DNA from: Escherichia phage vB_Eco_Solly
Direction: 5' to 3' (one strand)
Sequence record: OY720021
Length of the DNA: 64,000 nt
Positions 2,258 to 57,158 of the stretch are shown here, piece by piece. Under the pieces are notes generated by a model. That model was not told the DNA's origin, ran no database searches, and saw only the letters and a list, made by a program, of their open reading frames with translations. Each line of letters opens with the position of its first letter. Position 1 is the first letter of the stretch. A program made the position numbers and the translations under genes.

Positions 2258-2282
2258 CAAAGGGACCGAAAGGTCCCTTTTT
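2258..2282. terminator. Bidirectional terminator between convergent genes 24 and rnlB
   Basis: AAAGGGACC-GAAA-GGTCCCTTT with A/T runs on both sides. Confidence 0.7.
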
Positions 2283-2284
2283 AT

Positions 2285-3289: not shown

Positions 3290-3298
3290 AATTAATCC

Positions 3299-3779: not shown

Positions 3780-3868
3780 GTTATCGAGTTGGTGCCATTA
3801 TATACATCATTTTCTGATTGTGTTTTGTGTGCTTTCAAAATGAAGAAAGGGGCCGAAGCCCCTTATGA

Positions 3869-5287
3869 TTATGGATAGGTATAGATGATACCAGTTTCTA
3901 AAGCAGTTTTGTGAATGATGTATCCATTACGCGATTCTTGGACATCAACTTCTGGATAGTCTTTCATCATCTTCTGAAGAGTGTAACGATGCAGGTAGTA
4001 TTTACTATCTGGATCTTCAGTTTTCCAATCTTTACCTTCTTCAGTCATTTTTTGGATTTCATCCATAACCCACCAACCGCACCAGATGTAAGCTGAGCTA
4101 CGGTGTGGAAGAGGATGAACATAAGGTAATTCACCTTCTGGTTCTGGAGCAACTTTATCAGTTACCTGAACTTGACCTTCTGCCGTAATAGTTTTGCTAT
4201 CATAATCAGCAGCAGTAACAGTTGCAGTAACTTCAATAGTTTGACTTCCAATAGATGAGGTATCAACTGTATATACATTAGTTGACCCTTCTACAGGAGA
4301 AGAATCTTTCTTCCATGAATACTCAATTTGCGCTTCTTCTGGAGCATCAGTGACATTAGCAGTAAATGTAGCCGAAGCATCTTGCTGAACGTTAATAGAA
4401 GGAGGAGACAATGTAACCTGTGGATTCATTGTCTTCTTATTAACCGTTAATGATACTTCATTCGAAGTAACTTCCTTTTCATTGTAATTTTCAGCAGTTA
4501 CTTGGGCTACGCATTTAATTCTTTTTACTCCACTTGTAGTTGGAGTATAGTTAAATGTAGAGTTAGTTTCTCCACCAACTTGTGAATCATCTACATACCA
4601 CTGATACGTAGCAGATGCTCCATCAGGTTGAGAAGCTAAGGCAGCAGTAAATTGAACTGGGGTTCCGATTACTCCTGCTGGAGGACTATCAGGAGTTACT
4701 GCCAAGGTAGTTGTCTGCTCCTTTTTATTAACAGTCAGTGATACTTCATTAGAAGTAACGCTTAGTGCATCATAATCTGTCGCAGTTACTTGAGCCACAC
4801 ACTTAATTCTTTTTACCCCGCTTTCGGCAGGAGTGTAATTGAACGTAGCGTTAGTTGCTTCGCCCACAGGAGAATCATCTACATACCATTGATAAGTAGC
4901 GTTTGCGCCCGATGGCTGCGAAGCTAAAGCGGCAGTAAATTCAATAGCTGTTCCGATTACTCCAGCGTCAGGGCTATTAGGAGTTACAGCTAAGGTGGTC
5001 GTTTGTGTCTTATTTTGAACTGTGATAGTTGTAGTAGCTTCTGCTGTTTCAGCATCAGTATCTGGGACTGGGTTTGTTGCAACTACTTTAATAGTCTTTT
5101 GACCGGCAGGTCCTTTTAATACATAATTAAAAGTTGCTTCAGCTCCATCTTGTGGAACATCATCTACAGTCCAAGCATATGTAATAGGTCCATCTCCAGT
5201 TTGACCACTGGGTGTAGCAGTAAACTGCTGAGTCTGATCTATAACTCCAGTAGGTGTTTTAGGAGTTATATCAACTGTAAAAGCCAT
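3869..5287 (-). CDS. hoc: Highly immunogenic outer capsid protein Hoc with four Ig-like domains
   Basis: 472 aa; Ig-like repeats rich in T/V/S with YxW and KCVAQVTA motifs; two near-identical 96-aa tandem units; aromatic C-terminal capsid-binding region. Confidence 0.85.
   Translation of the reverse strand: MAFTVDITPKTPTGVIDQTQQFTATPSGQTGDGPITYAWTVDDVPQDGAEATFNYVLKGPAGQKTIKVVATNPVPDTDAETAEATTTITVQNKTQTTTLAVTPNSPDAGVIGTAIEFTAALASQPSGANATYQWYVDDSPVGEATNATFNYTPAESGVKRIKCVAQVTATDYDALSVTSNEVSLTVNKKEQTTTLAVTPDSPPAGVIGTPVQFTAALASQPDGASATYQWYVDDSQVGGETNSTFNYTPTTSGVKRIKCVAQVTAENYNEKEVTSNEVSLTVNKKTMNPQVTLSPPSINVQQDASATFTANVTDAPEEAQIEYSWKKDSSPVEGSTNVYTVDTSSIGSQTIEVTATVTAADYDSKTITAEGQVQVTDKVAPEPEGELPYVHPLPHRSSAYIWCGWWVMDEIQKMTEEGKDWKTEDPDSKYYLHRYTLQKMMKDYPEVDVQESRNGYIIHKTALETGIIYTYP
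4433..5008 (-). repeat. Tandem direct duplication of a 288-bp Ig-domain unit inside hoc
   Basis: Units about 4433..4720 and 4721..5008 align with mostly synonymous or conservative differences. Confidence 0.8.
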
Positions 5288-5296
5288 AAGTTATCC

Positions 5297-5977
5297 TTAT
5301 TTTAATGTTACGAAAGAAGAATTGCGTGTTTCACGAATTAAAACTGATCCGTCACGGTTAATGTAATAAATTAAGCTAAATAAAGTTTGGTGTGCTGACG
5401 CATGCTCAAAACTAGTTGGGTGAGATTTCCAATCAGGAGTTTCAGCAATCCATTGATAAATCCACCAAGGAACAGTGCAGAATCCTGGATTTTTTCCAAT
5501 CAGCTGAAGATTCGGACTAAAGTTTTCCGGAAGAGTAAATACAGACGGCTTTTCAGATTCAATAATCTCAGCTACAGCCTGTTCAAACTTTTCTTCAACA
5601 AAGGGAGTATCTTCAATCAAAACTGAGGTATTTTCAGGAATTTTATCCGTTTCTACTACTTCAATTTTAATGTCAGATTTAACCGGAGAATCAATCAGAA
5701 GTGCTGCTTCTGGATTGACTTCTTCATCGTCATATTTTAATCCCTCTGCGGCATCAGCAGCATCAATTAAGTCTTTAATAGATAACCCATCAGTCTCTGG
5801 CATAGGTTCACTAGCGAGCTTCTGGAGGGCTTCTTCAATATCAACAACGATATTATCAAAAGATTTATTCTTTTTGACCTTTATACCAAACTGTTCAGCA
5901 TATTCAGCTAATTTAGCTTTAGCTTCTTTATTATCATCAAGAGCCTTCAGCTCTGCAATATAATCTTTATCTATCAT
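5297..5977 (-). CDS. inh: Inh-like acidic protein (inhibitor of prohead protease)
   Basis: 226 aa acidic ORF between hoc and uvsW; SD GAGGAAA upstream of ATG. Confidence 0.65.
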   Translation of the reverse strand: MIDKDYIAELKALDDNKEAKAKLAEYAEQFGIKVKKNKSFDNIVVDIEEALQKLASEPMPETDGLSIKDLIDAADAAEGLKYDDEEVNPEAALLIDSPVKSDIKIEVVETDKIPENTSVLIEDTPFVEEKFEQAVAEIIESEKPSVFTLPENFSPNLQLIGKNPGFCTVPWWIYQWIAETPDWKSHPTSFEHASAHQTLFSLIYYINRDGSVLIRETRNSSFVTLK

Positions 5978-5990
5978 AATATTTCCTCAG

Positions 5991-5998
5991 TATAAATA
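5991..5998 (+). promoter_or_regulatory. Late promoter TATAAATA upstream of uvsW
   Basis: Exact TATAAATA 30 nt upstream of uvsW ATG. Confidence 0.6.
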
Positions 5999-6027
5999 TA
6001 GATATATTTATTACATGGTATTTAGAC

Positions 6028-7539
6028 ATGATTGACATTAAAGCACATTTTTATGATTTTAGTCACGTGAGAATTGACTGTGAAGAAAGTACATTTCATG
6101 AACTCCGTGATTTCTTTAGCTTTGAAGCTGATGGGTATCGTTTTAATCCGAAATACAAATATGGCCACTGGGATGGACGAATCCGTCTTTTAGATTATAA
6201 TCGTCTTCTTCCATTCGGCTTAGTCGGGCAAATTAAAAAGTTCTGTGATAACTTTGGCTATAAAGCCTGGATTGACCCGCAAATTAACGAAAAAGAAGAA
6301 TTATCAAGAAAAGATTTTGATGAATGGCTTTCTAAATTAGAAATCTATTCAGGAAATAAAAGAATTGAACCGCACTGGTATCAAAAAGATGCAGTGTTCG
6401 AAGGATTAGTTAATCGTCGTAGAATTCTTAATCTTCCAACATCCGCTGGTAAATCGTTAATTCAAGCTTTGCTTGCTCGGTATTATTTGGAAAATTATGA
6501 AGGTAAAATTCTTATCATTGTTCCAACAACTGCCTTAACAACTCAGATGGCTGATGACTTCGTCGACTATCGTCTATTCAGTCATGCAATGATAAAGAAA
6601 ATTGGTGGCGGAGCATCAAAAGATGATAAATATAAAAATGATGCACCAGTCGTTGTTGGTACATGGCAAACTGTAGTTAAACAACCAAAAGAATGGTTCT
6701 CACAGTTTGGAATGATGATGAATGATGAATGCCATCTTGCTACAGGAAAAAGTATTTCATCTATCATATCAGGTTTAAATAACTGCATGTTCAAATTCGG
6801 TTTGTCTGGTTCATTACGTGATGGCAAAGCTAATATCATGCAGTATGTTGGGATGTTTGGTGAAATATTTAAACCAGTAACGACTTCTAAATTAATGGAA
6901 GATGGACAAGTAACTGAGCTAAAAATTAATAGTATTTTTCTTCGCTATCCCGATGAGTTCACTACTAAATTAAAGGGAAAAACTTATCAAGAAGAAATAA
7001 AAATTATTACGGGGCTTAGTAAAAGAAATAAATGGATCGCTAAATTAGCTATTAAGCTTGCGCAAAAAGATGAAAACGCTTTTGTCATGTTTAAACATGT
7101 ATCACATGGTAAAGCTATTTTCGATTTAATTAAAAATGAATACGATAAAGTTTATTACGTATCAGGGGAAGTTGATACCGAAACCCGCAATATAATGAAA
7201 ACCTTAGCTGAAAATGGTAAAGGAATAATTATAGTAGCTAGTTATGGTGTATTTTCTACTGGTATTTCAGTTAAAAATCTGCATCACGTTGTTTTAGCGC
7301 ACGGTGTTAAATCAAAAATCATTGTATTACAAACAATCGGTCGTGTATTACGTAAGCATGGTTCTAAGACAATAGCAACCGTCTGGGACCTCATAGATGA
7401 TTGTGGCGTTAAGCCAAAATCTGCTAATACGAAAAAGAAATATGTTCATTTGAACTATCTTTTAAAACACGGCATTGATCGTATTCAGCGCTATGCAGAT
7501 GAAAAATTTAATTACGTAATGAAAACAGTTAATTTATAA
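6028..7539 (+). CDS. uvsW: UvsW SF2 DNA helicase, helicase core (ORF ends prematurely relative to a fused 587-aa form)
   Basis: 503 aa; Walker A PTSAGKS and DECH box; stop TAA 7537..7539 inside a stretch where the downstream frame is already open. Confidence 0.9.
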   Translation: MIDIKAHFYDFSHVRIDCEESTFHELRDFFSFEADGYRFNPKYKYGHWDGRIRLLDYNRLLPFGLVGQIKKFCDNFGYKAWIDPQINEKEELSRKDFDEWLSKLEIYSGNKRIEPHWYQKDAVFEGLVNRRRILNLPTSAGKSLIQALLARYYLENYEGKILIIVPTTALTTQMADDFVDYRLFSHAMIKKIGGGASKDDKYKNDAPVVVGTWQTVVKQPKEWFSQFGMMMNDECHLATGKSISSIISGLNNCMFKFGLSGSLRDGKANIMQYVGMFGEIFKPVTTSKLMEDGQVTELKINSIFLRYPDEFTTKLKGKTYQEEIKIITGLSKRNKWIAKLAIKLAQKDENAFVMFKHVSHGKAIFDLIKNEYDKVYYVSGEVDTETRNIMKTLAENGKGIIIVASYGVFSTGISVKNLHHVVLAHGVKSKIIVLQTIGRVLRKHGSKTIATVWDLIDDCGVKPKSANTKKKYVHLNYLLKHGIDRIQRYADEKFNYVMKTVNL

Positions 7540-43896: not shown

Positions 43897-46800
43897 ATGG
43901 CCGAGATTAAAAGAAAGTTCAGAGCAGAAGACGGTCTGGACGCAGGTGGCGATAAAATAATCAACGTAGCTTTAGCTGATCGTACCGTAGGAACTGACGG
44001 TGTTAACGTTGATTACTTAATTCAAGAAAACACAGTTCAACAATACGATCCAACTCGTGGATATTTAAAAGATTTTGTAATCATTTATGATAACCGCTTT
44101 TGGGCTGCTATAAATGATATTCCAAAACCAGCAGGAGCTTTTAATAGCGGACGCTGGAGAGCATTACGTACCGATGCTAACTGGATTACGGTTTCATCTG
44201 GTTCATATCAATTAAAATCCGGTGAAGCTATTTCGGTTAACACTGCAGCTGGAAATGACATCACGTTTACTTTACCATCTACTCCAATTGATGGTGATAC
44301 TATCGTTCTCCAAGATATTGGAGGAAAACCTGGAGTTAACCAAGTTTTAATTGTAGCTCCAGTGCAAAGTATTGTAAACTTTAGAGGTGAACAAGTACGT
44401 TCAGTACTAATGACTCATCCAAAGTCACAGCTAGTTTTAATTTTTAGTAATCGTCTGTGGCAAATGTATGTAGCTGATTATAGTAGAGAAGCTGTAGTTG
44501 TAACACCAGCGAATACTTATCAAGCGCAATCTAATGATTTTATCGTACGTAGATTTACTTCTGCTGCACCAATTAATGTCAAACTTCCAAGATTTGCTAA
44601 TCATGGCGATATTATTAATTTCGTCGATTTAGATAAACTAAATCCACTTTATCATACAATTGTTACTACATACGATGAAACGACTTCAGTACAAGAAGTT
44701 GGAACTCATTCCATTGAAGGCCGTACATCGATTGACGGTTTCTTGATGTTTGATGATAATGAGAAATTGTGGAGATTGTTTGACGGGGATAGTAAAGCAC
44801 GTTTACGCATTATAACGACTAATTCTAATATTCGTCCAAACGAAGAAGTTATGGTATTTGGTGCGAATAACGGAACAACTCAAACAATTGAGCTTCAGCT
44901 TCCTACTGATATCTCTGTTGGTGATACTGTTAAAATTTCCATGAATTACATGAGAAAAGGACAAACAGTTAAAATCAAAGCTGCCGGTGAAGATAAAATT
45001 GCTTCTTCAGTTCAATTGCTGCAATTCCCAAAACGTTCAGAATATCCGCCTGAAACTAAATGGGTAACTGTTCAAGAATTAGTTTTTAACGGTGAAACTA
45101 ATTATGTTCCAGTTTTACAGCTTGCTTATATAGAAGATTCTGATGGAAAATACTGGGTTGTACAGCAAAACGTTCCAACTGTAGAAAGAGTAGATTCTTT
45201 AAATGATTCTACTAGAGCAAGATTAGGCGTAATTGCTTTAGCTACACAGGCTCAAGCTAACGTCGATTTAGAAAATTCTCCACAAAAAGAATTAGCAATT
45301 ACTCCAGAAACATTAGCTAACCGTACTGCTACAGAAACTCGTAGAGGTATCGCAAGAATAGCAACTACTGCTCAAGTGAATCAGAACACCACATTCTCTT
45401 TTGCAGATGACCTTATCATTACTCCTAAAAAGCTGAATGAAAGAACTGCTACAGAAACTCGCAGAGGTGTTGCAGAAATTGCTACTCAGCAAGAAACAAA
45501 CGCAGGAACAGATGATACAACCATCATTACTCCTAAAAAGCTTCAAGCTCGTCAAGGTTCTGAATCATTATCCGGTATTGTAACTTTTGTATCTACCGCG
45601 GGAGCTACTCCAGCTTCTAGTCGTGAATTAAATGGTACAAACGTTTATAATAAAAACACTAATAATTTAGTTGTTTCGCCTAAAGCTCTAGATCAGTATA
45701 AAGCTACTCCAACGCAACAAGGTGCAGTAATTTTAGCAGTTGAAAGTGAAGTAATTGCTGGTCAAAGTCAAGAAGGATGGGCAAATGCTGTTGTAACGCC
45801 AGAAACGTTACACAAAAAGACATCAACTGATGGAAGAATTGGTTTAATTGAAATTGCTACGCAAAGTGAAGTTAATACAGGAACTGATTATACTCGTGCA
45901 GTCACTCCTAAAACTTTAAATGACCGTAGAGCAACTGAAAGTTTAAGTGGTATAGCTGAAATTGCTACGCAAGTTGAATTCGACGCAGGCGTCGACGATA
46001 CTCGTATCTCTACACCATTAAAAATTAAAACCAGATTTAATAGTACTGATCGTACTTCTGTTGTTGCTCTATCTGGATTAGTTGAATCAGGAACTCTCTG
46101 GGACCATTATACCCTTAATATTCTTGAAGCAAATGAGACACAGCGTGGTACACTTCGTGTAGCTACACAGGTTGAAGCTGCTGCAGGAACATTAGATAAT
46201 GTTTTAATAACTCCTAAAAAGCTTTTAGGTACTAAATCTACCGAATCGCAGGAAGGTGTTATTAAAGTTGCAACTCAGTCTGAAACTGTGACTGGAACGT
46301 CAGCAAATACTGCTGTATCTCCAAAAAATTTAAAATGGATTGTGCAGAGTGAACCTACCTGGGCAGCTACTACTGCGGTAAGAGGTTTTGTTAAAACTTC
46401 ATCTGGTTCAATTACGTTCGTTGGTAATGATACAGTCGGTTCTACCCAAGATTTAGAACTGTATGAGAAAAATAGCTATGCAATATCACCATATGAATTA
46501 AACCGTGTATTAGCAAATTATTTGCCATTAAAAGCAAAAGCTGCTGATACAAATTTATTGGATGGTCTAGATTCATCTCAATTCATTCGTAGGGATATTG
46601 CACAGACGGTTAATGGTTCACTAACCTTAACCCAACAAACGAATCTGAGTGCCCCTCTTGTATCATCTAGTACTGCTACGTTTGGTGGATCAGTTTCGGC
46701 AAATAGTACATTAACTATTTCTAATACTGGAACGGCAACTCGTCTGATTTTTGAGAAAGGACCTCAAACTGGAACTAACCCAGCGCAGACGATGACTATC

Positions 46801-47766
46801 AGAGTTTGGGGAAATCAGTTTGGTGGTGGATCAGATACAACACGTTCTACTGTATTTGAAGTTGGTGATGAAACATCTAATCACTTTTATTCTCAACGTA
46901 ATAAAGCTGGTAATATTACGTTTAGCATTAATGGTACTGTGATGCCAATAAATGTTAACGCTTCCGGTTCATTGAATGCGAATGGCGTTGCAACATTTGG
47001 TAGTTCAGTTACTGCTAATGGTGAATTCATCAGCAAGTCTGCAAATGCTTTCAGAGCAATAAACGGTGATTATGGATTCTTTATTCGCAACGATGCTGCT
47101 AACACCTATTTCATGCTTACTGCATCGGGTGATCAGACTGGCGGATTTAATGGATTACGTCCTTTAGCTATTAACAATCAGTCCGGTCAAGTAACGATTG
47201 GTGAAAGCTTAATCATTGCCAAAGGTGCTACTATAAATTCAGGTGGTTTAACTGTTAACTCGAGAATTCGTTCTCAGGGTACTAAAACCGCTGATTTATA
47301 CACCCGTGCACCGACATCTGATACTGTAGGATTCTGGTCAATCGATATTAATGATTCAGCTACTTATAACCAATTCCCGGGTTATTTTAAAATGGTTGAA
47401 AAAACTAATGAAGTGACTGGACTTCCATACTTAGAACGTGGCGAAGAAGTTAAATCTCCTGGTACATTGACTCAGTTTGGTAACACACTTGATTCGCTTT
47501 ACCAAGATTGGATTACTTATCCAACGACTCCAGAAGCACGTACCACTCGCTGGACACGTACATGGCAGAAAACCAAAAATTCTTGGTCGAGTTTTGTTCA
47601 GGTATTTGATGGAGGTAACCCTCCTCAGCCGTCTGATATCGGTGCTTTGCCATCTGATAATGCTACAATGGGGAATCTTACTATTCGTGATTTCTTACGA
47701 ATTGGTAATGTTCGCATTATTCCTGACCCAGTGAATAAATCTGTTAAATTTGAATGGATTGAATAA
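43897..47766 (+). CDS. 34: Long tail fibre proximal subunit gp34
   Basis: 1289 aa; internal ~37-aa repeats; late promoter at 43855..43862. Confidence 0.85.
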   Translation: MAEIKRKFRAEDGLDAGGDKIINVALADRTVGTDGVNVDYLIQENTVQQYDPTRGYLKDFVIIYDNRFWAAINDIPKPAGAFNSGRWRALRTDANWITVSSGSYQLKSGEAISVNTAAGNDITFTLPSTPIDGDTIVLQDIGGKPGVNQVLIVAPVQSIVNFRGEQVRSVLMTHPKSQLVLIFSNRLWQMYVADYSREAVVVTPANTYQAQSNDFIVRRFTSAAPINVKLPRFANHGDIINFVDLDKLNPLYHTIVTTYDETTSVQEVGTHSIEGRTSIDGFLMFDDNEKLWRLFDGDSKARLRIITTNSNIRPNEEVMVFGANNGTTQTIELQLPTDISVGDTVKISMNYMRKGQTVKIKAAGEDKIASSVQLLQFPKRSEYPPETKWVTVQELVFNGETNYVPVLQLAYIEDSDGKYWVVQQNVPTVERVDSLNDSTRARLGVIALATQAQANVDLENSPQKELAITPETLANRTATETRRGIARIATTAQVNQNTTFSFADDLIITPKKLNERTATETRRGVAEIATQQETNAGTDDTTIITPKKLQARQGSESLSGIVTFVSTAGATPASSRELNGTNVYNKNTNNLVVSPKALDQYKATPTQQGAVILAVESEVIAGQSQEGWANAVVTPETLHKKTSTDGRIGLIEIATQSEVNTGTDYTRAVTPKTLNDRRATESLSGIAEIATQVEFDAGVDDTRISTPLKIKTRFNSTDRTSVVALSGLVESGTLWDHYTLNILEANETQRGTLRVATQVEAAAGTLDNVLITPKKLLGTKSTESQEGVIKVATQSETVTGTSANTAVSPKNLKWIVQSEPTWAATTAVRGFVKTSSGSITFVGNDTVGSTQDLELYEKNSYAISPYELNRVLANYLPLKAKAADTNLLDGLDSSQFIRRDIAQTVNGSLTLTQQTNLSAPLVSSSTATFGGSVSANSTLTISNTGTATRLIFEKGPQTGTNPAQTMTIRVWGNQFGGGSDTTRSTVFEVGDETSNHFYSQRNKAGNITFSINGTVMPINVNASGSLNANGVATFGSSVTANGEFISKSANAFRAINGDYGFFIRNDAANTYFMLTASGDQTGGFNGLRPLAINNQSGQVTIGESLIIAKGATINSGGLTVNSRIRSQGTKTADLYTRAPTSDTVGFWSIDINDSATYNQFPGYFKMVEKTNEVTGLPYLERGEEVKSPGTLTQFGNTLDSLYQDWITYPTTPEARTTRWTRTWQKTKNSWSSFVQVFDGGNPPQPSDIGALPSDNATMGNLTIRDFLRIGNVRIIPDPVNKSVKFEWIE
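45200..46320 (+). repeat. Array of ~111-bp (37-codon) repeats inside gene 34
   Basis: Recurrent TPxxLxxRTATE(T/S)xRG(I/V)AxIATQ motif, at least 8 copies. Confidence 0.7.
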
Positions 47767-47774
47767 GAGGTATT

Positions 47775-48890
47775 ATGGAAAAATTTATGGCAGAGTTTGG
47801 ACAAGGATATGTCCAAACGCCATTTTTATCGGAAAGTAATTCAGTAAGATACAAAATAAGTATAGCGGGTTCTTGCCCGCTTTCTACTGCAGGACCATAC
47901 GTTAAATTTCAAGATAATCCTGTTGGAAGTCAAACATTTAGCGCAGGTCTTCATCTAAGAGTTTTTGACCCTTCTACAGGAGCATTAGTTGATAGTAAGT
48001 CATATGCTTTTTCGACTTCAAATGATACTACATCAGCTGCTTTTGTTAGTTTCATGAATTCTTTGACGAATAATCGAATTGTTGCTATATTAACTAACGG
48101 AAAGGTTAATTTTCCTCCTGAAGTAGTATCTTGGTTAAGAACCTCCGGAACGTCTGCTTTTCCATCTGACTCTATATTGTCGAGATTTGATGTATCATAT
48201 GCTGCTTTTTATACTTCTTCTAAAAGAGCTATCGCATTAGAACATGTTAAATTAAGTAACAGAAAAAGCACAGATGATTATCAAACTGTATTAGATGTAG
48301 TATTTGATAGTTTAGAAGATGTTGGAGCGACAGGATTTCCTAAAAGAACATACGAAAGCGTTGAGCAATTTATGTCAGCTGTTGGTGGAACTAATAACGA
48401 AATTGCGCGTTTACCGACTTCATCAGCGATAAGTAAACTATCTGACTACAATTTAATTCCTGGCGATGTTCTTTATCTTAAAGCACAACTATATGCTGAT
48501 GCCGATTTACTTGCGCTTGGAACTACAAATATATCTATCCGTTTTTATAATGCATCGAATGGATATATTTCCTCGACACAAGCTGAGTTTACTGGGCAAG
48601 CTGGGTCATGGGAATTAAAGGAAGATTATGTAGTTGTTCCAGAAAATGCAGTTGGATTTACGATATATGCACAAAGAACTGCTAAAGCTGGCCAAGGTGG
48701 CATGAGAAATTTAAGCTTTTCTGAAGTATCAAGAAACGGCGGAATTTCAAAACCTGCTGAATTTGGCGTCAATGGTATTCGAGTTAATTATGTCTGTGAA
48801 TCTGCTTCACCTCCGGATATAATGGTACTTCCTACACAAGCATCGTCTAAAACTGGTAAAGTGTTTGGGCAAGAATTTAGAGAAGTATAA
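47775..48890 (+). CDS. 35: Long tail fibre hinge protein gp35
   Basis: 371 aa; immediately after gene 34. Confidence 0.8.
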   Translation: MEKFMAEFGQGYVQTPFLSESNSVRYKISIAGSCPLSTAGPYVKFQDNPVGSQTFSAGLHLRVFDPSTGALVDSKSYAFSTSNDTTSAAFVSFMNSLTNNRIVAILTNGKVNFPPEVVSWLRTSGTSAFPSDSILSRFDVSYAAFYTSSKRAIALEHVKLSNRKSTDDYQTVLDVVFDSLEDVGATGFPKRTYESVEQFMSAVGGTNNEIARLPTSSAISKLSDYNLIPGDVLYLKAQLYADADLLALGTTNISIRFYNASNGYISSTQAEFTGQAGSWELKEDYVVVPENAVGFTIYAQRTAKAGQGGMRNLSFSEVSRNGGISKPAEFGVNGIRVNYVCESASPPDIMVLPTQASSKTGKVFGQEFREV

Positions 48891-48893
48891 ATT

Positions 48894-48920
48894 GAGGGAG
48901 CCTTCGGGTTCCCTTTTTCT
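48894..48920 (+). terminator. Intrinsic terminator after gene 35
   Basis: GAGGGAGCC-TTCG-GGTTCCC followed by TTTTTCTTT. Confidence 0.7.
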
Positions 48921-48921
48921 T

Positions 48922-48929
48922 TATAAATA
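48922..48929 (+). promoter_or_regulatory. Late promoter TATAAATA for gene 36
   Basis: Exact TATAAATA 24 nt upstream of gene 36 ATG, downstream of hairpin. Confidence 0.7.
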
Positions 48930-48952
48930 CTATTAAAATAAAGGGGCATACA

Positions 48953-49615
48953 ATGGCTGATTTAAAAGTAGGTTCAACAACCGGAGGCTCTGTCATTTGG
49001 CATCAAGGAAATTTTCCATTGAATCCAGCCGGTGACGATGTACTCTATAAATCATTTAAAATATATTCAGAATATAATAAACCACAAGCTGCTGATAACG
49101 ATTTCGTTTCTAAAGCTAATGGTGGTACTTACGCCGCGACTGTTCGATTTAATGGAGGAGTACATGTTCCTACTATAGGTAGTAGTCAACAGTGCGGTGT
49201 TTATCCGGGTAACGGTGATGCAGCTACTTTTGCTATGGCAAATATTGACATCGTTTCGTGGAATGGTATTGGTTTTAAATCATCACAAGGTTCAGCAGAC
49301 CGAACTGTTGTAATTAATGCACGTAATGGTGATATTAGTACAAAAGGCGTTGTGACAGCAGTAGGTCAAATAAGAAGTAATGCAGTTTCTCCTGTATCAG
49401 CAAATGACCTTACTAGAAAGGACTATGTTGATGGAGCAATAAATACTGTTACGGCAAATGCGAACTCTAGAGTGTTACGATCTGGTGACACTATGACGGG
49501 AAACTTAACCGCACCAAACTTTTTTTCGCAGAATCCTGCATCTCAACCTTCACACGTTCCACGATTTGACCAAATCGTAATTAAGGATTCTGTTCAAGAT
49601 TTCGGCTATTATTAA
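48953..49615 (+). CDS. 36: Long tail fibre distal connector gp36
   Basis: 220 aa; late promoter 48922..48929. Confidence 0.8.
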
Positions 49616-49623
49616 GAGGACTT

Positions 49624-52600
49624 ATGGCTACTTTAAAACAAATACAATTTAAAAGAAGCAAAACCGCAGGTGCACGTCCTGCTGCTTCAGTATTAGCCGA
49701 AGGCGAATTGGCTATAAACTTAAAAGATAGAACAATTTTTACTAAAGATGATTCAGGAAATATCATTGATTTAAGCATTTCCGCTGGCGGTAATATCAGT
49801 GGAAATATCACACAAACTGGAGATTATTTACAGAACGGTACATACAATCTCAATGGAAATCAGTTTGTTTATGCAGGAAAATATATTGAATTTTTACCTA
49901 AAACAGCTGGTAATGGTGCGTGGGCAAATCAACACCTAAATAAAGCTCCTATCTTTACAGATTTAAGTTCAACTACTTCTATTTCAGAATATCATCCACT
50001 CATTAAGCAACGCTATAAAGATGGAACTTTTTCAGCGGGTACATTGGTTGCTGAAGGAAGTTTTAAGATTCATTACATCAATGAATCTGGGGATTCGAAA
50101 TATTGGACTTTTAATCGTAATGGTAATTTCCAAGTTGACACAGGCGATTTATTTGTCAGCAAAGGTAATATTTCCGCTTCAGGCAATATTAATTCAGCTA
50201 CTGGAATAGTTTCTGCTCCACAGATTAATACAAAAACCATAGTTTTTGATACAAAGGCATTCGGACAATACGATTCGCAGTCATTAGTTCAATATGTTTA
50301 TCCTGGAACAGGTGAAGAAAATGGTATAAACTATCTTCGTAAAGTTCGAGCTAAATCAGGCGGAACTATTTATCATGAAATCGCTTCAGCTCAAACTGGT
50401 AAGAATGATGAAATTTCTTGGTGGACCGGAAATACACTTACTACTAAATTAATGGGTCTTCGTAATGATGGAGCAATGGTATTACGTCGTTCACTTGCTA
50501 TTGGCACAATTACTGCTGACGAAAATACTAACAACTATGGTTCTCCTACTCCAATGGGAGAAAGATATATTGCTTTGGGCGATGCCGCCACTGGTTTAAA
50601 ATACGTCAAGCAGGGTGTTTATGATTTAGTAGGTAATTGGAATTCTGTTGCTTCTATCACTCCTGACAGTTTCCGTAGTACTCGTAAAGGTATATTTGGT
50701 CGTTCCGAGGACCAAGGCGCAACTTGGATAATGCCTGGTACAAATGCTGCTCTCTTGTCTGTTCAAACCCAAGCTGATAATAACAATGCTGGAGACGGAC
50801 AAACCCATATCGGGTACAATGCTGGCGGTAAAATGAACCACTATTTCCGTGGTACAGGTCAGATGAATATCAATACCCAACAAGGTATGGAAATTAACCC
50901 GGGTATTTTAAAATTGGTAACTGGCTCTAATAAAGTACAGTTTTATGCTGACGGCGGTATTACATCTGTTAAGCAGCTTTCAATATATAATGGCGTATAT
51001 TTAGCAGCTAATAATTCTACTGCTGGGCTAACATTCGCTCCAACTACTACAGTTGATGGCACTAAGCAAATTTTGTGGGAAGGTGGTACTCGTGCTGGGC
51101 AGAATAAAAGCTACGTAACTGTTAAAGCATGGGGTAATTCATTTAACGCATCCGGCGATCGTACTCGTGAAACTGTATTTGAAGTTAGTGACGGGCAAGG
51201 ATATTATTTTTATTCACAGCGTTTGGCTCCAAGTGGCTCTGAAACTACTGGGCCTGTTGTAACCCAGTTCAATGGACAAGTTAATGCTAGAGGGAGCATT
51301 ATCACCGATGGAAGTCTTAGAGTTAATGGATTAAGTACATTATCCGGACAAGTTACTATGGATAACGGGCTTGTTTTATCCGGCGGTGGTTCTATTACCG
51401 GTCAAGTTAAAATTGGTAATACCGTAGATGCTTTCCGTATTTACAATGCTGAATATGGAGCTATTTTCCGTCGTTCTGAAGCGTCTTTGCATATTATACC
51501 TACACTTAAAGATGCAGGTGAAAGTGGCGGTATTTCTAACCTTCGCCCATTGAGCATCTCACTTAACAATGGTATGGTTCAAATGCGCCATTCTGTTACG
51601 TTAGGTGATGATGGTGCAGGCGGTAATATGGTGACGGTTGATAATGATTCTAAAGTTATGGTAATGACGACTAATAGCCGTATTAGTCCTAACTTCCGTA
51701 TGCAAATTGGACAGTCGTCTTATATTGATGTGGAATGTACTGATGCTGTGAGACCTGCTGGAGCCGGTTCTTTTGCTTCACAAAATAATGAAAATGTACG
51801 TGCGCCGTTCTATATGAATATTGATAGAACTGATACTAGTACATATGTTCCTATTGTGAAACAAAGATACGTTCAAAATAATAGTTGCTATTCTATTGGT
51901 ACTTTAATTAATGGTGGTAACTTTAGAGTTCATTATCACGAAGGTGGTGACGGCGTTTCTACTGGCGCAATTATAAAGGATTTAGGTTGGGAATTTAATA
52001 AAAACGGTGATTTTTATTCTCCTGGTAAATTAGGCGCTGGTAATGTTCGTATTGGTACGGATGGTAATATCACTGGCGGTTCATTACCTAACTTTGCTAA
52101 CTTGAACTTGACATTAGACCGTAAAGTCAATACCCGAATGGTTTCTTATTCAGGTACTGGCGGTTGGTATAAATTAGCCACTGTAACAATGCCACAATCC
52201 ACTTCAACCGTCACATTCGAAATTGCTGGTGGTAATGGATATAATATCAACATCCCACACCAATGCGTTACTTCGAAAATCGTTTTAAGAACTTCGAACA
52301 ATAACCCGAAAGGTATTAACGCTGTTGTTTGGTCGATGGATACCGATCAGGGTATTAAGAATGTTGCAACGGTTAATACATCAGGCGATGTTTATGACAT
52401 CTATGTAAACGTTGGTACTTATGCTCAGGCGTTAGCAGTTTCTTATTATGCTACTCCTAATGCTACCATTAATCAGATATTTGCAACGGACCAACCGGGT
52501 GCAACAGAAACTGCGGTTGAACTTCCTGAGACGGCTATTCAAGGACAGGTTGCTAGTGTTCTGAACAACTTGGCTCCTACCCCTAACGGTGTGAAGCGTT

Positions 52601-53571
52601 ATGAAGCCGATTCTGAAATAGCTATTAATAGCCAAACCGGTATTCGTATCAGAAGCAATGCCGATAAAACTGGTTCTGTGGCTACAATGTTACGAAATGA
52701 CGGCGGTAGTTTTTATATTCTGTTTACAGATAAAAATGACACCGATGGCGCAGCAACTGTTAATGGTGATTGGAATAGTAAACGTCCTTTCGCAATTAAC
52801 TTAACAACCGGCGAAGTGATGATGAATAATGGCATAGCTGTTCGCAGCGCTGCTTTATTCTATAATAGCATAAACGTCAAAGATAATGGTTCTATTAACT
52901 TTGATAAATCAGGTGCTAACCCGAGAAATATGAGAATATTTCATGCTGGCGATGCTTCTCGCGGTAACCGTATTGAAATTGCCGATGAAACTAACTATAT
53001 TGCTTACTTTGAAAAGACTCCAGGTGGAGCTAACCGCTTTGTAGTAAATAATGCTACTGTAGCTGGTGTTAACCAAATGAATTCATTTGGTATTAATATC
53101 AATAACGCACTTGGTGGAAATAGTATAGCATTTGGTGATAATGATACCGGAATTAAACAATCCGCTGACGGAGTTCTTGATATCATTACTAATGCCGCAC
53201 GCCGAATGAGATTCCGAACGGGTGACACTTATTCTGACATGAATATAAATGCCCCAAACGTTTATATTCGTTCTGATATTCGTTTGAAATCTAATTTCAG
53301 ACCTATTGAAAATGCTCTTGAAAAGGTTGAACAGCTTGATGGTTTAATCTATGATAAAGCTGACTATATAGGCGGTGAAATTGTTCAAACTGAAGCGGGT
53401 ATTGTGGCTCAAACACTGCAAGATGTTTTACCAGAAGCAGTTCGTGAAGTTGAAGATATTAAGGGTAATAAAATACTCACTGTTTCTTCTCAATCCCAGA
53501 TTGCTCTTCTGGTTGAAGCTGTGAAAACACTTTCTTCTCGTGTAAAAGAACTTGAATCTAAACTTATGTAA
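49624..53571 (+). CDS. 37: Long tail fibre distal subunit gp37 with C-terminal intramolecular-chaperone-like domain
   Basis: 1315 aa; shares motifs with gp34; C-terminal ~99 aa begin SDIRLK and end in a heptad-like coiled-coil segment. Confidence 0.85.
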
Positions 53572-53572
53572 A

Positions 53573-53600
53573 AGAGGGCTTCGGCCCTCTAAGGATTTTT
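53573..53600 (+). terminator. Hairpin between genes 37 and 38
   Basis: AGAGGGC-TTCG-GCCCTCT directly after gene 37 stop; weak T-tract. Confidence 0.5.
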
Positions 53601-53601
53601 A

Positions 53602-54387
53602 ATGGCAATTGTAGGTGTTCCTGGCTGGATTGGCGAATCTGCCGTGAATGAAACTGGACAACGTTGGATGGATGCTGCGATGAGAGCAGTTCGTGTTTCA
53701 GTTCCCGGTTGGATGAGTTCAATGGCTGGGCAATCTAAAGAAGTATATTATAGCATTGGTGCTAGTAATTCTTATAATAAAGATACATTAATAAACTGGA
53801 TAAAAGCACAAGGGTCCACGCCTGTTGTTATTACTATTACAGGAAATATTGTTTCTCAATCTACTGGTGTTCCATGCTTAGATTTTCCTAGCTCATTAAC
53901 TAATGCATACGTGACACTTAATATCAATTCAGGCGTGCACGTTTGGGGCCGTGGCGGGAATGGCGGAAATAACTCTGCCGGTGGAGCAGGAGGAACTGCA
54001 ATAAATAATGGAATTGGAACTAGATTGCGTATTAACAACAATGGTGTTATCGCAGGAGGCGGTGGAGGCGGTGGAGGCGGATATTATTCTCCTTTTTCAC
54101 AAATGAGATTAACCTTTGGCGGCGGTGGTGGGCGTCCGTTTGGTGCTGCCGGTGGGTCTGCTAATATGGAACAGGGTGCTACTGCTGGTACTATTTCTGC
54201 ACCAGGTAAAGGGTCTGTCAACGGTATCTATAATGGCGGGAATGGTGGTGATGCCGGAGCCGCAGGAGGTAAATGTAATATTCGCGGTCAAGGATCAGAA
54301 TATAACGGCGGTGCGGCCGGTAAAGCTGTTACTGGTAATGCTCCAACTTGGACTAAGGTTGGTACAATATACGGTTCAAGAGTATAA
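53602..54387 (+). CDS. 38: Receptor-recognising adhesin gp38, T2-type with glycine-rich motifs
   Basis: 261 aa; N-terminal attachment region then poly-Gly blocks separated by variable segments. Confidence 0.85.
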   Translation: MAIVGVPGWIGESAVNETGQRWMDAAMRAVRVSVPGWMSSMAGQSKEVYYSIGASNSYNKDTLINWIKAQGSTPVVITITGNIVSQSTGVPCLDFPSSLTNAYVTLNINSGVHVWGRGGNGGNNSAGGAGGTAINNGIGTRLRINNNGVIAGGGGGGGGGYYSPFSQMRLTFGGGGGRPFGAAGGSANMEQGATAGTISAPGKGSVNGIYNGGNGGDAGAAGGKCNIRGQGSEYNGGAAGKAVTGNAPTWTKVGTIYGSRV

Positions 54388-54419
54388 TTTTTGAATAAAT
54401 ATCCTTAAAAGGAGGGTCT

Positions 54420-55076
54420 ATGGCAGCACCTAGAATATCATTTTCGCCCTCTGATATTCTATTTGGTGTTCTAGATCGCTTGTTCAAAGATAACGCTACC
54501 GGGAAAGTTCTTGCTTCCCGGGTAGCTGTCGTAATTCTTTTATTTATGATGGCGATTGTTTGGTATAGGGGAGATAGTTTCTTTGAGTACTATAAGCAAT
54601 CAAAGTATGAAACATACAGTGAAATTATTGAAAAGGAAAGAAATGCACGCTTTGAATCTGTCGCCCTGGAACAACTCCAGATAGTTCATATATCATCTGA
54701 GGCAGACTTTAGTGCGGTGTATTCTTTCCGCCCTAAAAACTTAAACTATTTTGTTGATATTATAGCATACGAAGGAAGATTACCTTCAACAATAACTGAA
54801 AAATCACTTGGAGGATATCCTGTTGATAAAACTATGGATGAATATATAGTTCATTTAAATGGACGTCATTATTATTCTGACTCAAAATTTGCTTTTTTAC
54901 CAACTAAAAAGCCTACTCCCGAAATAAACTACATGTACAGTTGTCCATATTTTAATTTGGATAATATCTATGCTGGAACGATAACCATGTACTGGTATAG
55001 AAATGATCATATAAGTAATGACCGCCTTGAATCAATATGCGCTCAGGCGGCCAGAATATTAGGAAGGGCTAAATAA
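54420..55076 (+). CDS. t: Holin T
   Basis: 218 aa; single N-terminal TM segment (VAVVILLFMMAIVWY) and large periplasmic domain. Confidence 0.85.
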   Translation: MAAPRISFSPSDILFGVLDRLFKDNATGKVLASRVAVVILLFMMAIVWYRGDSFFEYYKQSKYETYSEIIEKERNARFESVALEQLQIVHISSEADFSAVYSFRPKNLNYFVDIIAYEGRLPSTITEKSLGGYPVDKTMDEYIVHLNGRHYYSDSKFAFLPTKKPTPEINYMYSCPYFNLDNIYAGTITMYWYRNDHISNDRLESICAQAARILGRAK

Positions 55077-55349
55077 TTATTTGTTCGTATACATCTCTAG
55101 ATATCGATATACACCCTCAAAACCCTCGTTGAATTCGTCGATGAGGGTTTTCTTATCTTCTTGAGTTAATTCAGAAACAATTTTACGGAATGAATTCTGA
55201 TTTAATTTTCTACCTTCATGCGTTACTCCAATCTCATTCAGAAATGCAATAAAATTAGCACGATTCTCAACAATATCTTCTCTGGAAAATTTAATCAAAA
55301 TAGACGCAACAGTAATAATTTCACGAACTGTATCAATGTTTTTATTCAT
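55077..55349 (-). CDS. asiA: Anti-sigma-70 factor AsiA
   Basis: 90 aa convergent with t. Confidence 0.85.
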   Translation of the reverse strand: MNKNIDTVREIITVASILIKFSREDIVENRANFIAFLNEIGVTHEGRKLNQNSFRKIVSELTQEDKKTLIDEFNEGFEGVYRYLEMYTNK

Positions 55350-55361
55350 TAACTATACCAC

Positions 55362-55514
55362 TCAATTAGTTGACTTTGTTATAATATCATCAGACGCTTG
55401 ATTTGTAAACTGGTCTGTGTTATTTTCTTCAAAAATTTTTTCTACGAATTCCTTGAACGACTTACGTTCCTGAGCTACATTATGCTCGATTACTTTTTCA
55501 AGATTATGACTCAT
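55362..55514 (-). CDS. Small ORF (about 50 aa) between arn and asiA, below ORF-track threshold
   Basis: Manual translation MSHNLEKVIEHNVAQ...; ATG overlaps arn stop; contains the asiA early promoter. Confidence 0.3.
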   Translation of the reverse strand: MSHNLEKVIEHNVAQERKSFKEFVEKIFEENNTDQFTNQASDDIITKSTN

Positions 55515-55789
55515 TCGAAATAATCTTCAATTTCATAATCATGGACGTAAATCATTATAGTTTTTAATACATCATCAATACTTTTTCCTGGAGCTGGAAT
55601 TACGTAGAAATATCCTGCTTTTGAGAGGTCTTTATAAGTTCCAATCAAGAAATCATTATTCTCAAGATGTAGTTCTTCAACTAATTCATTAACAATTGAA
55701 TGGTATAGGTTTGGTAGAAACTTATATAGCTTTTCTAGAATATCAATTTTGATTGTGTATTGAACCACGGATTGAGAATCAATAATCAT
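55511..55789 (-). CDS. arn: Arn-like acidic protein (candidate anti-restriction DNA mimic)
   Basis: 92 aa acidic protein adjacent to asiA. Confidence 0.6.
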   Translation of the reverse strand: MIIDSQSVVQYTIKIDILEKLYKFLPNLYHSIVNELVEELHLENNDFLIGTYKDLSKAGYFYVIPAPGKSIDDVLKTIMIYVHDYEIEDYFE

Positions 55790-55872
55790 AGACCTTCCCC
55801 TTATGTTTCTGTTTGCGATTAGATTCTTTAAACGCTTTCTTCTTATCCTTATGAACAGAAGCTTTATTAAAA

Positions 55873-56091
55873 TTATGTTTTGCGACTAAATTGTTCATAG
55901 TGCTGAATTACCTCTCTTAAACATTTGCATGTGAATGAAAACTTTTTAGCTACACCACATTCAAATATATGTTCTCTTAAATCACGTGTATCGGTATATC
56001 CCATCTCAACGATAAAATGCCGTATTAGATTTTTATCTTTATCATTGAGAGAATTAAAATAATCGGATTTTGAATTAATTTCCCTGGCCAA
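55873..56091 (-). CDS. Hypothetical protein
   Basis: 72 aa ORF. Confidence 0.45.
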   Translation of the reverse strand: MAREINSKSDYFNSLNDKDKNLIRHFIVEMGYTDTRDLREHIFECGVAKKFSFTCKCLREVIQHYEQFSRKT

Positions 56092-56371
56092 ATTGAATCA
56101 CCTTCAGTTGACGTTTTAATTCTTTTATCATCTCTTCGTTCATCGCAATATAAAGATCGCGTAAAGCAGGTTTTAGCATGTCATTTATTATAGAACTAAA
56201 TGGACATACATAATCTTTTCCTACGAGCTTTTTGGTGAATTCCATATCACAGAACTTAAATCCCGGCTCATTGGTATAAATTCCCCAATTAGTTGACATC
56301 ATTTTATTGGCATGTTCTAGTGCCTGGATTTGATTCATAATTCCATCAATTTGAAACTTTTTAATATTCAT
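56075..56371 (-). CDS. Hypothetical protein
   Basis: 98 aa ORF. Confidence 0.45.
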   Translation of the reverse strand: MNIKKFQIDGIMNQIQALEHANKMMSTNWGIYTNEPGFKFCDMEFTKKLVGKDYVCPFSSIINDMLKPALRDLYIAMNEEMIKELKRQLKVIQFGQGN

Positions 56372-56832
56372 TAGTAAAGGTCCTCAGAGTAAAGTTCTTT
56401 TTCACTACCACCACGTTCAATACGTACTTGTCCAGCGTAAGTTGCAATAATCATTGCTTCTTCACGTGTCCAATAATTACTATATTGGTCAATAAACCCT
56501 TGGTCATCATTACAAACTTGTTGAGTAACTAATTGAGGTTTAACTACATCTAAAACTTCTGCCATATCTTTAGAATAATGACGAGCACCTGGAATAATAA
56601 GAGTTCGTCCATCTTTTAATTTAAAACGGTTGGCTGCACAAACAATTCGTCGTTGATACTTTTGGTTTTCATCCCAATACGCAGTCTGCCAACAGATTTC
56701 AGGAACTTCTTTCAGAATATCTTCTTCTGTGCATTTATAACCATGCGCTTTAAATTTTTCAACAAGACTTTCTGGAGTCTCACGAGATAAAGGAACATTC
56801 AGCATTTTTAAACGATTAATAAATGGGTTCAT
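56371..56832 (-). CDS. Hypothetical protein
   Basis: 153 aa ORF. Confidence 0.5.
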
Positions 56833-57158
56833 TTAAACCATCCTTTAATACGCTGCCACAAAGTTTTCTGCTGAGCTTTGTTAACACCAATTGAGCGAAT
56901 AACCGGTTGAGATTCCTGGAATTCTTTATAATCATCAAGGTAAATTTCGTAAGCTGCATCTGTAAATGAACTTATTGCTGCCATAAAATTATTGCGAATA
57001 CCTACTGGAGCATCTTTACTTTCACGAATAATCATGTATTTACCAGTCTTAATCTTTACGATAGTTCCAAGATAAGCTCCATGGTACCAGATGTCCCAAC
57101 CCTCTTGAGTAGGTTCTGCGCAACGACGAAGTTCATTAACAATTTCTAACTTGTTCAT
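56829..57158 (-). CDS. Hypothetical protein
   Basis: 109 aa ORF. Confidence 0.5.

Follow-up and report, generated by a model that had tools for sequence, protein, structure and literature searches.

The end of gene 37 and the adjoining gene 38 of Escherichia phage vB_Eco_Solly, analysed here within a window of 64,000 nucleotides (OY720021), make up the receptor-binding module at the distal tip of the long tail fibre in a T2/T6-like Tequatrovirus, an ordinary and well-studied arrangement. We are confident in the overall account, in which a gp37 with a self-cleaving Peptidase_S74 domain is capped by a gp38 adhesin directed at Tsx; judging from its sequence, this adhesin almost certainly uses the E. 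coli outer-membrane protein Tsx as its receptor. The underlying reading of gp37 and gp38 is established knowledge and restates earlier work (Drexler 1986; Tetart 1998; Trojet 2011; Dunne 2018): the C-terminal processing of gp37 in T2 and T6, the autocleavage of the S16 chaperone and the layout of gp38 as glycine motifs and hypervariable segments have all been published.

According to the list of open reading frames, g36 (48953-49615), g37 (49624-53571) and g38 (53602-54387) follow one another on the plus strand, to which all coordinates refer unless stated otherwise, and the holin gene t (54420-55076) is the downstream neighbour. The distal long-tail-fibre subunit encoded by g37 is a precursor of 1315 aa and 141.3 kDa, and g38 encodes a tail-fibre-tip adhesin of the T2 type, assigned as such also by Pfam, with 261 aa and 25.8 kDa. 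The order of g37 with its S74 end, g38 and t is common to T2, T6, JK38, Bas39, EL, PinkRuby and the window. The exact gp37 protein is deposited as CAJ1578810.1 (vB_Eco_Solly) and remains a singleton at 90% clustering; the exact gp38 sequence is found at NCBI as WP_260939298.1 and CAJ1578812.1 (vB_Eco_Solly). The initial annotation had set the 1315 aa of gp37 against about 1026 aa in T4, and T4 gp37 is indeed 1026 aa long and without Peptidase_S74. Small ORFs overlapping g38 (53856-54041 and 54109-54291 on the minus strand and 54116-54394 on the plus strand) were set aside as by-products of GGN-rich coding.

The final 99 of the 1315 residues of gp37 (S1217-M1315; 53272-53568; 10.9 kDa) make up an intramolecular-chaperone or Peptidase_S74 domain (Pfam PF13884), and the gp37 proteins of T2 and T6 are arranged alike. 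The Pfam model matches residues 1217-1274 over its entire length (positions 1-58 of 58) at 51.3 bits (gathering score, 22), and what had been described as autochaperone-like can be called a bona fide Peptidase_S74 domain, for which cleavage is predicted by homology. The domain opens with SDIRLK (53272-53289), as had been noted earlier, the S1217 codon lying two bases downstream of the position given then (53270). This motif contains the predicted catalytic dyad of Ser1217 (53272-53274) and Lys1222 (53287-53289), and its S, D, R, L and K are the same in all six gp37 proteins aligned (window, T2, T6, Bas39, EL and JK38). It aligns with SDRRIK in S16, SDERLK in the 8jov tail fibre and ADLRAK in MYRF, the last with Ala at the Ser position. 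A PDB profile search with the six gp37 C-termini retrieved the S16 gp37 C-terminus (E 3.2e-07), the MYRF ICA domain (E 4.4e-06) and 8jov (E 2.6e-04); at E <=1 the same search returned neither endosialidase nor T5 pb1 chaperone structures.

Immediately 5' of the predicted cleavage site lies NVYIR (residues 1212-1216; 53257-53271), the putative post-cleavage C-terminus and docking surface for gp38. It aligns with DLNVS in S16 and DVYIR in the fPS phages, and all six aligned phages share VYIR. In S16, gp37 cleaves itself at DLNVS^SDRRIKK, which removes a chaperone of 113 residues and exposes the gp38 docking site (PMC7917993), and the T2 and T6 gp37 homologues have been reported as cleaved (Trojet 2011). 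The chaperone domain of vB_Eco_Solly by analogy probably cuts itself off between R1216 and S1217. The exact site is placed solely by the alignment with S16, because the T2 fragment that Drexler is said to have described in 1986 was reportedly about 120 residues long, against the 99 predicted here. Towards the end of the domain, residues 1293-1314 (53500-53565) show a heptad repeat with I1293, L1296, V1300, L1303, V1307, L1310 and L1314 at the a and d positions (spacing 3-4-3-4-3-4). The pattern favours a coiled coil and is clean enough to justify the label coiled-coil-like that the segment had been given; a single-sequence AF2 model of residues 1190-1315, of low confidence (pLDDT 52.9), contains three helices and renders 1293-1314 helical.

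The partner protein gp38 belongs to the T2-type adhesins. Both models of the Pfam pair PF05268 and PF21721 match it, with Gp38_N at residues 1-42 (64.6 bits) and GP38 at residues 47-261 (243.1 bits), both against a cut-off of 25; residues 8-259 match the S16 gp38 structure (6f45_D, E 2.4e-49), and the receptor-binding domain of PP01 gp38 is likewise recovered (9v85, E 2.4e-33). From these two structural matches we infer a polyglycine-II sandwich fold; a single-sequence AF2 model reached a pLDDT of 29.8, too poor for a fold search. The N-terminal attachment domain (residues 1-47; 53602-53742) is of the T2 subtype, with 46 of 47 residues identical to T2 (98%) and 31 of 47 identical to T6 (66%). 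Its residues W9, W22 and W37 align with Trp residues of S16 gp38, whose attachment by three Trp prongs has been described (PMC6851490), and they are predicted to be the prongs that plug into the cleaved gp37 tip.

The specificity domain (residues ~116-245; 53947-54336) alternates glycine-rich motifs with hypervariable loops in the manner described by Trojet (2011). The alternating poly-Gly blocks first pointed out in this 261-aa protein can be located as five runs (116-119, 127-131, 152-160 with nine Gly, 173-177 and 212-216), and glycine accounts for 49 of 146 residues (34%) over 116-261. Differences among T2, T6 and the window are concentrated between these runs. When the variable segments were compared with those of T2 and T6, part of a check that had been proposed at the outset, HVS2 (residues 161-172; 54082-54117), HVS3 (residues 186-211; 54157-54234) and HVS4 (residues 224-235; 54271-54306) all proved T6-like, with 11 of 12, 20 of 26 and 10 of 12 residues, respectively, identical to T6 as counted by hand from the gp38 alignment. 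Across residues 151-261 the protein shares 82% identity with T6 and 55% with T2, so the original description of the module as T2-type holds for its architecture and for the attachment half of gp38, and gives way to a T6-like specificity half.

Since the specificity half is T6-like, the predicted receptor is Tsx and not the FadL or OmpF of T2. The same prediction arises from close relatives: gp38 is 99.6% identical (260 of 261 residues) to that of JK38, Bas39 and EL, and the sole difference from Bas39 and JK38 is R169 (K169R; 54106-54108), an arginine that also occurs in T6 and PinkRuby. Bas39 is listed as a Tsx phage (BASEL supplement), and JK38 was assigned to Tsx/Kdo by RB-TnSeq. The one paper that mentions vB_Eco_Solly does not deal with receptors; the locus provides a confident and testable Tsx prediction for this Durham Collection phage, whose receptor is unpublished, and the prediction is useful for the composition of phage cocktails without common routes of resistance.

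Both genes bear the marks of segmental exchange. The gp37 shaft, which carries a Pfam Gp34_trimer match at residues 509-645, alternates in identity between T2, EL and Bas39 when scored in 50-aa bins; the OmpA phage PaulHMueller is the best match to bases 51500-52650 (94.5%), and the distal block from about residue 1000 onwards is the same as in Bas39 and JK38. In its central part the shaft combines, as a mosaic, segments common to different phages. Within g38 a recombination breakpoint falls in the interval 53980-54065, located at the poly-Gly run GGGGGGGGG (54055-54081) or shortly ahead of it: the upstream 464 nt contain 8 differences from JK38 and the downstream 322 nt contain 23 (Fisher p = 2.5e-4), and at 20 sites in 54066-54372 the window agrees with PinkRuby against JK38, Bas39 and EL alike. 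Identity over the 3' half of g38 reaches 98.6% with PinkRuby, compared with 94.3% or less for the others. The suspicion that the module would be a recombination hotspot was well founded, the locus being visibly mosaic against a backbone of 94-100% identity. We also considered whether the module is unusually diverged, given its 93-96% DNA identity to the nearest phages, and rejected this idea because the whole 21-kb region stands at ~94% too.

At the protein level the adhesin is held constant. The 28-36 nucleotide differences between g38 of the window and those of Bas39 and JK38 are nearly all synonymous, dN/dS is 0.01-0.03 at a dS of 0.15-0.19, and the adjoining t gene has a dS of <=0.03; gp38 is under strong purifying selection. 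The locus is a tidy illustration of how T-even host-range modules are built through recombination at conserved motifs, of the separate ancestries of the attachment and specificity halves of gp38, and of an adhesin allele that is frozen as a protein (dN/dS ~0.01) despite DNA divergence. It leaves the current understanding unchanged.

An intercistronic RNA hairpin, AGAGGGC-UUCG-GCCCUCU (53573-53590; -13.4 kcal/mol, z = -2.07), separates the stop codon of g37 (53569-53571) from the Shine-Dalgarno sequence of g38, AAGGA (53591-53595). Its sequence is identical in T2, JK38, Bas39, EL and PinkRuby, and T6 has a hairpin with a different sequence at the same position; because the T6 form is equivalent in structure yet different in sequence, there is a hint of selection on the structure itself. 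A search of 47000-57000 with Rfam at gathering thresholds gave no match, which places the hairpin outside the curated RNA families. It is conceivable, if doubtful, that it acts as an attenuator (a partial terminator, processing barrier or translational brake) that keeps gp38 below gp37, and if so the output of gp38 would fit the presumed 3:1 ratio of trimer to monomer at the tip. As to the transcript itself, an exact match to TATAAATA, which we take to be a promoter from the T4 late-promoter consensus, is present upstream of g36 (48922-48929), and a late transcript spanning g36, g37 and g38 probably starts there. With 12 copies against 9.2 expected, the window shows no excess of the motif. The nearest upstream sites are this one and another at 43855, before g34; exact copies are absent between 48922 and g38 and directly upstream of g38 or t, and the one-mismatch form AATAAATA precedes t.

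Taken together, these features suggest the following course of events. gp37 would be synthesised as a 141-kDa precursor whose last 99 residues, the Peptidase_S74 chaperone, nucleate the trimeric folding of the beta-helical fibre and then remove themselves through Ser1217/Lys1222 autoproteolysis between R1216 and S1217. The new C-terminus ending in NVYIR would form a threefold-symmetric docking surface, onto which a single gp38 monomer may dock via W9, W22 and W37 of its T2-subtype N-terminal domain, giving the virion a presumed 3:1 ratio of gp37 to gp38 at the tip. The C-terminal polyglycine-II sandwich would then present T6-type hypervariable loops to the nucleoside channel Tsx as the primary receptor. 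Both the self-cleavage and the location of gp38 in the virion are proposed here on grounds of homology. The locus itself would evolve by exchange of segments, with crossovers at conserved stretches including the Gly-rich motifs, each adhesin allele being kept constant by purifying selection.

Several alternative readings touch on individual parts of this scheme. The notion that gp38 is a T4-like assembly chaperone outside the virion, with the receptor read by gp37, draws on several database records in which the orthologue is still named 'distal long tail fiber assembly catalyst' or 'tail assembly protein', but these labels are legacy annotation derived from the T4 gene name. T4 gp38 is a protein of 183 aa without similarity (BLASTP E = 19), as had been anticipated in the initial annotation, and the RefSeq note on T4 gene 38 describes the 'gp38' of the T2 subfamily as unrelated; moreover, the protein of the window strongly matches two crystallised gp38 adhesins, and its gp37 is without the Collar and Phage_fiber tip domains of T4. 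We consider the chance of such a role to be next to nil. It is also highly improbable that the S74 domain is retained in the mature fibre, whether uncleaved or as a passive trimerisation tag, with gp38 attached elsewhere or only transiently. Cleavage of gp37 is a prediction here and the AF2 model is uninformative, but Ser and Lys never vary, whereas close relatives differ by 6-15 substitutions elsewhere in the domain, the T2/T6 and S16 homologues reportedly undergo cleavage, which in S16 exposes the docking surface, and the subtypes of the gp38 attachment domain and the gp37 C-terminus vary in step, both being T2 in this phage.

More room is left on the side of specificity. The architecture could be right and the primary receptor nevertheless not Tsx but OmpA, or a dual Tsx/OmpA or LPS specificity, if R169 in HVS2 or the unique gp37 shaft mosaic altered recognition. 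The substitution K169R leaves some doubt because single loop substitutions can switch receptors: Q206L changes OmpF to OmpW, and in phage PST Q167R/M168I, beside residue 169, broaden specificity (Trojet 2011), with G208I belonging to the same set. The OmpA 'type 1' adhesins are in addition phylogenetically near the Tsx adhesins, and the gp37 shaft is partly common to PaulHMueller. Against this, R169 is present in PinkRuby and in T6, the archetypal Tsx phage, at the remaining 260 positions gp38 is identical to the adhesins of two phages typed by experiment as Tsx-dependent, T2-type phages read their receptor through gp38 and not the gp37 shaft, and a switch from Tsx to OmpA has been achieved by a gp38 swap alone. 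A non-Tsx primary receptor is improbable; that R169 or the unique shaft mosaic might confer an extra receptor on vB_Eco_Solly is a weaker possibility than the attenuator role of the hairpin. The module had also been called the main determinant of host range, and there is an appreciable, if smaller, chance that it sets porin specificity while natural host range on wild E. coli depends chiefly on shielding by O-antigen or capsule, LPS-core recognition by the short-fibre protein gp12, and intracellular defence systems. Judging from a figure legend (Fig. 3), phages with identical Gp38 differ in their ECOR infection patterns; gp12 reads the secondary receptors (Kdo versus HepI), which can be swapped independently, and the BASEL tables cover many restriction and abortive-infection systems as well as O-antigen restoration, wbbL(+). 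Such observations merely temper the word 'main' and do not contradict the mechanism, and loss of the primary porin abolishes or strongly cuts plating of the BASEL T-even phages.

The preferred account, a self-cleaving gp37 capped by a Tsx adhesin, is best seen next to known systems. T4 shares the gene order 34-35-36-37-38-t and a gp37 with a Gp34_trimer-like internal domain, but in T4 the Collar and Phage_fiber receptor-binding domains form the end of gp37, and an S74 chaperone is absent. The endosialidase-type chaperones (PF13884 / MEROPS S74; K1F endosialidase, T5 pb1 and MYRF) belong to the same Pfam family and share Ser-x4-Lys at the start of the domain, a C-terminal position on a trimeric beta-helical fibre and a predicted helical end, whereas here the domain follows a T-even fibre as passenger, not a sialidase. 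The gp37-gp38 tip of S16 (PDB 6F45; Dunne et al. 2018) has the same two-gene architecture and S74 chaperone, and its gp38 has three Trp prongs and poly-Gly motifs that align with those of the window; it differs in its receptor, Salmonella OmpC, in its hypervariable loops, in the length of its chaperone (113 versus 99 residues) and in gp37 upstream of the last five residues. T6 (MH550421), with the archetypal Tsx adhesin, resembles the window in HVS2-4 and R169, but its gp37 is much shorter (994 aa), its attachment domain is of another subtype, and its chaperone domain is divergent (~41-46% identity) with a longer C-terminal tail. In T2 (LC348380) the chaperone domain is ~85% identical, the intergenic hairpin is identical and gp37 is similarly long (1341 aa against 1315 aa), whereas gp38 stands at 55% over residues 151-261 and the receptor is FadL; T2 also uses OmpF. 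FriedrichMiescher (Bas39) and Shigella phage JK38 have near-identical, Tsx-dependent gp38 adhesins, and they differ from vB_Eco_Solly in their gp37 shafts and in the 3' half of g38, which here belongs to a PinkRuby-like DNA lineage.

The plus-strand ORFs reproduce the canonical T-even long-tail-fibre operon; the ORF list of the window gives g34 (43897-47766, 1289 aa), g35 (47775-48890, 371 aa), g36 (48953-49615, 220 aa), g37 (49624-53571, 1315 aa, the length stated in the initial annotation), g38 (53602-54387, 261 aa) and the holin gene t (54420-55076, 218 aa); downstream come asiA, arn and other genes, all on the minus strand. The segment 53270-54387 comprises the last 99 g37 codons, a 30-nt spacer and the whole of g38. 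ORFs of 60-92 aa in other frames of g38 (53856-54041 and 54109-54291 on the minus strand, 54116-54394 on the plus strand) were rejected as genes; their translations, rich in Pro, Val and Leu, resemble side products of a coding strand full of GGN codons. Further upstream, residues 58-127 of the hinge protein gp35 (47946-48155) match Pfam ILEI (interleukin-like EMT inducer domain; 36.8 bits, cut-off 27), an unexpected label on a phage hinge connector.

The descriptive statements of the initial annotation are all correct. The gp37 tail does open with SDIRLK, at residue 1217 (codon 53272-53274), and its coiled-coil-like end forms a perfect a/d heptad (I1293, L1296, V1300, L1303, V1307, L1310, L1314). 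Residues 1217-1274 cover the full Pfam Peptidase_S74 model ('chaperone of endosialidase') and score 51.3 bits (cut-off 22). The same C-terminal domain is found in T2 (1341 aa) and T6 (994 aa) gp37, whereas T4 gp37 (1026 aa) carries Collar and Phage_fiber domains in its place. Searched against solved structures, the C-terminus matches the gp37 construct of Salmonella phage S16 (6f45_A). A profile made from six T-even gp37 C-termini (vB_Eco_Solly, T2, T6, FriedrichMiescher or Bas39, vB_Eco_EL or EL, and JK38) also matches 7dc3, the autoprocessing domain of MYRF (E 4.4e-06), and 8jov, a tail fibre (E 2.6e-04), with a Ser-x4-Lys motif aligned in every structure match; S1217, D1218, R1220, L1221 and K1222 are invariant in all six. 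C-terminal processing of T2 and T6 gp37 has been reported (Trojet et al., with Drexler 1986 cited there; PMC3157838). In S16 the last 113 residues are an intramolecular chaperone, autocleaved between the two serines of DLNVS^SDRRIKK, which exposes the gp38 docking surface; in Yersinia T4-like phages DVYIR^SDGRLK is the corresponding site (PMC7917993). The vB_Eco_Solly sequence, NVYIR^SDIRLK, resembles these sites, and a cut is therefore predicted between R1216 and S1217; it would yield a mature gp37 of 130.4 kDa and a released fragment of 10.9 kDa. For this fibre tip, cleavage, stoichiometry and virion location are inferred. In the shaft, residues 509-645 (51148-51558) match Pfam Gp34_trimer and, at E about 1e-13, structures solved by crystallography for the C-terminal region of T4 gp34, so the proximal and distal half-fibres have a domain in common; gp37 of T2, T6 and T4 contains it as well.

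The poly-Gly blocks ascribed to gp38 lie at residues 116-119, 127-131, 152-160, 173-177 and 212-216, and glycine makes up 34% of residues 116-261. Pfam matches are Gp38_N (64.6 bits) and GP38 (243.1 bits), and residues 8-259 match S16 gp38 (6f45_D; E 2.4e-49); the receptor-binding domain of PP01 gp38 is matched as well (9v85; E 2.4e-33). T4 gp38, the assembly chaperone from which the protein had been set apart, is indeed unrelated (183 aa; BLASTP E = 19). In S16 gp38, three Trp at the apices of the N-terminal helices enter symmetry-related pockets of the gp37 trimer, and hypervariable loops protrude from a polyglycine-II sandwich (PMC6851490); W9, W22 and W37 align with the three Trp.

On sequence evidence, the receptor of vB_Eco_Solly is very probably Tsx. 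Its gp38 differs from those of JK38, Bas39 and EL at one residue, K169R, in the hypervariable segment HVS2 (residues 161-172), and R169 is also present in T6 and PinkRuby. Bas39 is listed with Tsx and deep LPS core as receptors (BASEL supplementary table) and JK38 is Tsx/Kdo by RB-TnSeq (bioRxiv 10.64898/2026.04.02.716166). Identity of residues 1-47 is 98% to T2 and 66% to T6, that of residues 151-261 is 82% to T6 and 55% to T2; a T2-subtype attachment domain is therefore joined to a T6-subtype (Tsx) specificity domain. The chaperone region of gp37 is likewise of T2 subtype: over the last 115 residues its identity is about 82-93% with T2 and about 27-46% with T6. This agreement fits the lock-and-key pairing of gp37 C-terminal and gp38 N-terminal subtypes (Trojet, PMC3157838) and a PP01/T2 chimera in which gp38 required the T2 N-terminal 113 residues to function on T2 gp37 (PMC12892980). 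Some doubt about Tsx persists because single-residue receptor switches are documented (bioRxiv 10.64898/2026.04.02.716166) and phage PST gp38 has changes at residues 167 and 168 (PMC3157838).

The recombination hotspot proposed for the module is supported by a patchwork in g37 and a breakpoint inside g38. In DNA comparisons with JK38, Bas39, EL, T2 and T6, flanking g35, t, asiA and arn to arn.3 for the most part share 90-100% identity with each of the five phages; in the central part of g36 and at 49800-52600 in g37, identity drops to 60-88% or there is no alignment. The best-matching phage switches every few hundred bases across this variable stretch: in 50-aa bins of gp37 it is EL at 51-100 and 701-800 (94-100%), T2 at 251-350 (98-100%) and Bas39 at 451-550 (92-96%), and at 51500-52650 the closest is the OmpA phage PaulHMueller (94.5%). 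Clustering at 90% leaves full-length gp37 as a singleton. The annotation of gene 37 in Shigella phage JK38 (L001, its locus record, 1811-6302) is split into two CDSs that overlap, 1811-4531 and 4518-6302, which implies that the shaft region carries a frameshift or a sequencing error in a phage that is otherwise infectious. A JK38/EL-like block resumes at about 52600 and extends through g38, with a further breakpoint within g38. Of the window's sites from 54066 to 54372, 20 agree with PinkRuby where JK38, Bas39 and EL all differ; over the 3' 348 nt PinkRuby is 98.6% identical and every other record at most 94.3%. Differences from JK38 number 8/464 nt upstream and 23/322 nt downstream of the switch (Fisher p = 2.5e-4). 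The change falls within 53980-54065, at or just 5' of a nine-glycine run (54055-54081), the position predicted by the model of recombination at glycine-rich motifs (Tetart 1998, per PMC3157838).

Relative to JK38, Bas39 and EL, g38 has 28-36 nucleotide differences with only one amino-acid position changed (1-3 nonsynonymous steps counted, dS 0.15-0.19, dN/dS 0.01-0.03). In the adjoining t gene dS is 0.007-0.03, so that synonymous sites of g38 have diverged five to twenty times as far from the nearest relatives as those of t. The adhesin allele is therefore older or more foreign than its neighbourhood, yet constant as a protein, which indicates an imported, protein-frozen allele; variation in the adhesin is generated between alleles rather than within a single one. 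The gp37 chaperone domain tolerates more change than gp38 (dN/dS 0.13-0.25).

The spacer separating the g37 stop codon from the Shine-Dalgarno sequence of g38 contains, at 53573-53590, a hairpin of 7 bp capped by a UUCG loop (AGAGGGC-UUCG-GCCCUCU; -13.4 kcal/mol, z = -2.07) that matched no Rfam family. Its sequence is 100% conserved in T2, JK38, Bas39, EL and PinkRuby, and T6 has a hairpin of other sequence at the equivalent position (AAGGGGC-UUU-GCCCCUU). RNA stability, weak termination and translational tuning are candidate roles. The exact late-promoter motif TATAAATA occurs upstream of g34 (43855) and g36 (48922) and is lacking ahead of g38, which suggests that g36, g37 and g38 are co-transcribed. 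The g38-t spacer contains AATAAATA (54394-54401), which departs from the T4 late-promoter consensus by a single mismatch and is kept in 6/6 relatives examined, T6 included; it may be the late promoter of t.

vB_Eco_Solly is a Tequatrovirus of the Durham Collection (OY720021.1), published for its DNA modifications without receptor data; its head is reported there as 'more isometric', unlike the other 11 phages, and its GC content as 37% versus 35% (PMC13390438). Exact NCBI matches are CAJ1578810.1 for gp37 and CAJ1578812.1 for gp38, the latter also identical to WP_260939298.1, 'receptor-recognizing protein'. The initial annotation describes a known system correctly: the observation is confirmed and its interpretation supported. 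The tip architecture, a chaperone that cleaves itself, the arrangement of glycine-rich motifs and hypervariable segments, and the use of gp38 phylogeny to predict receptors are already published; the only additions to this knowledge are the Tsx prediction for vB_Eco_Solly and the fine-scale mosaic map.
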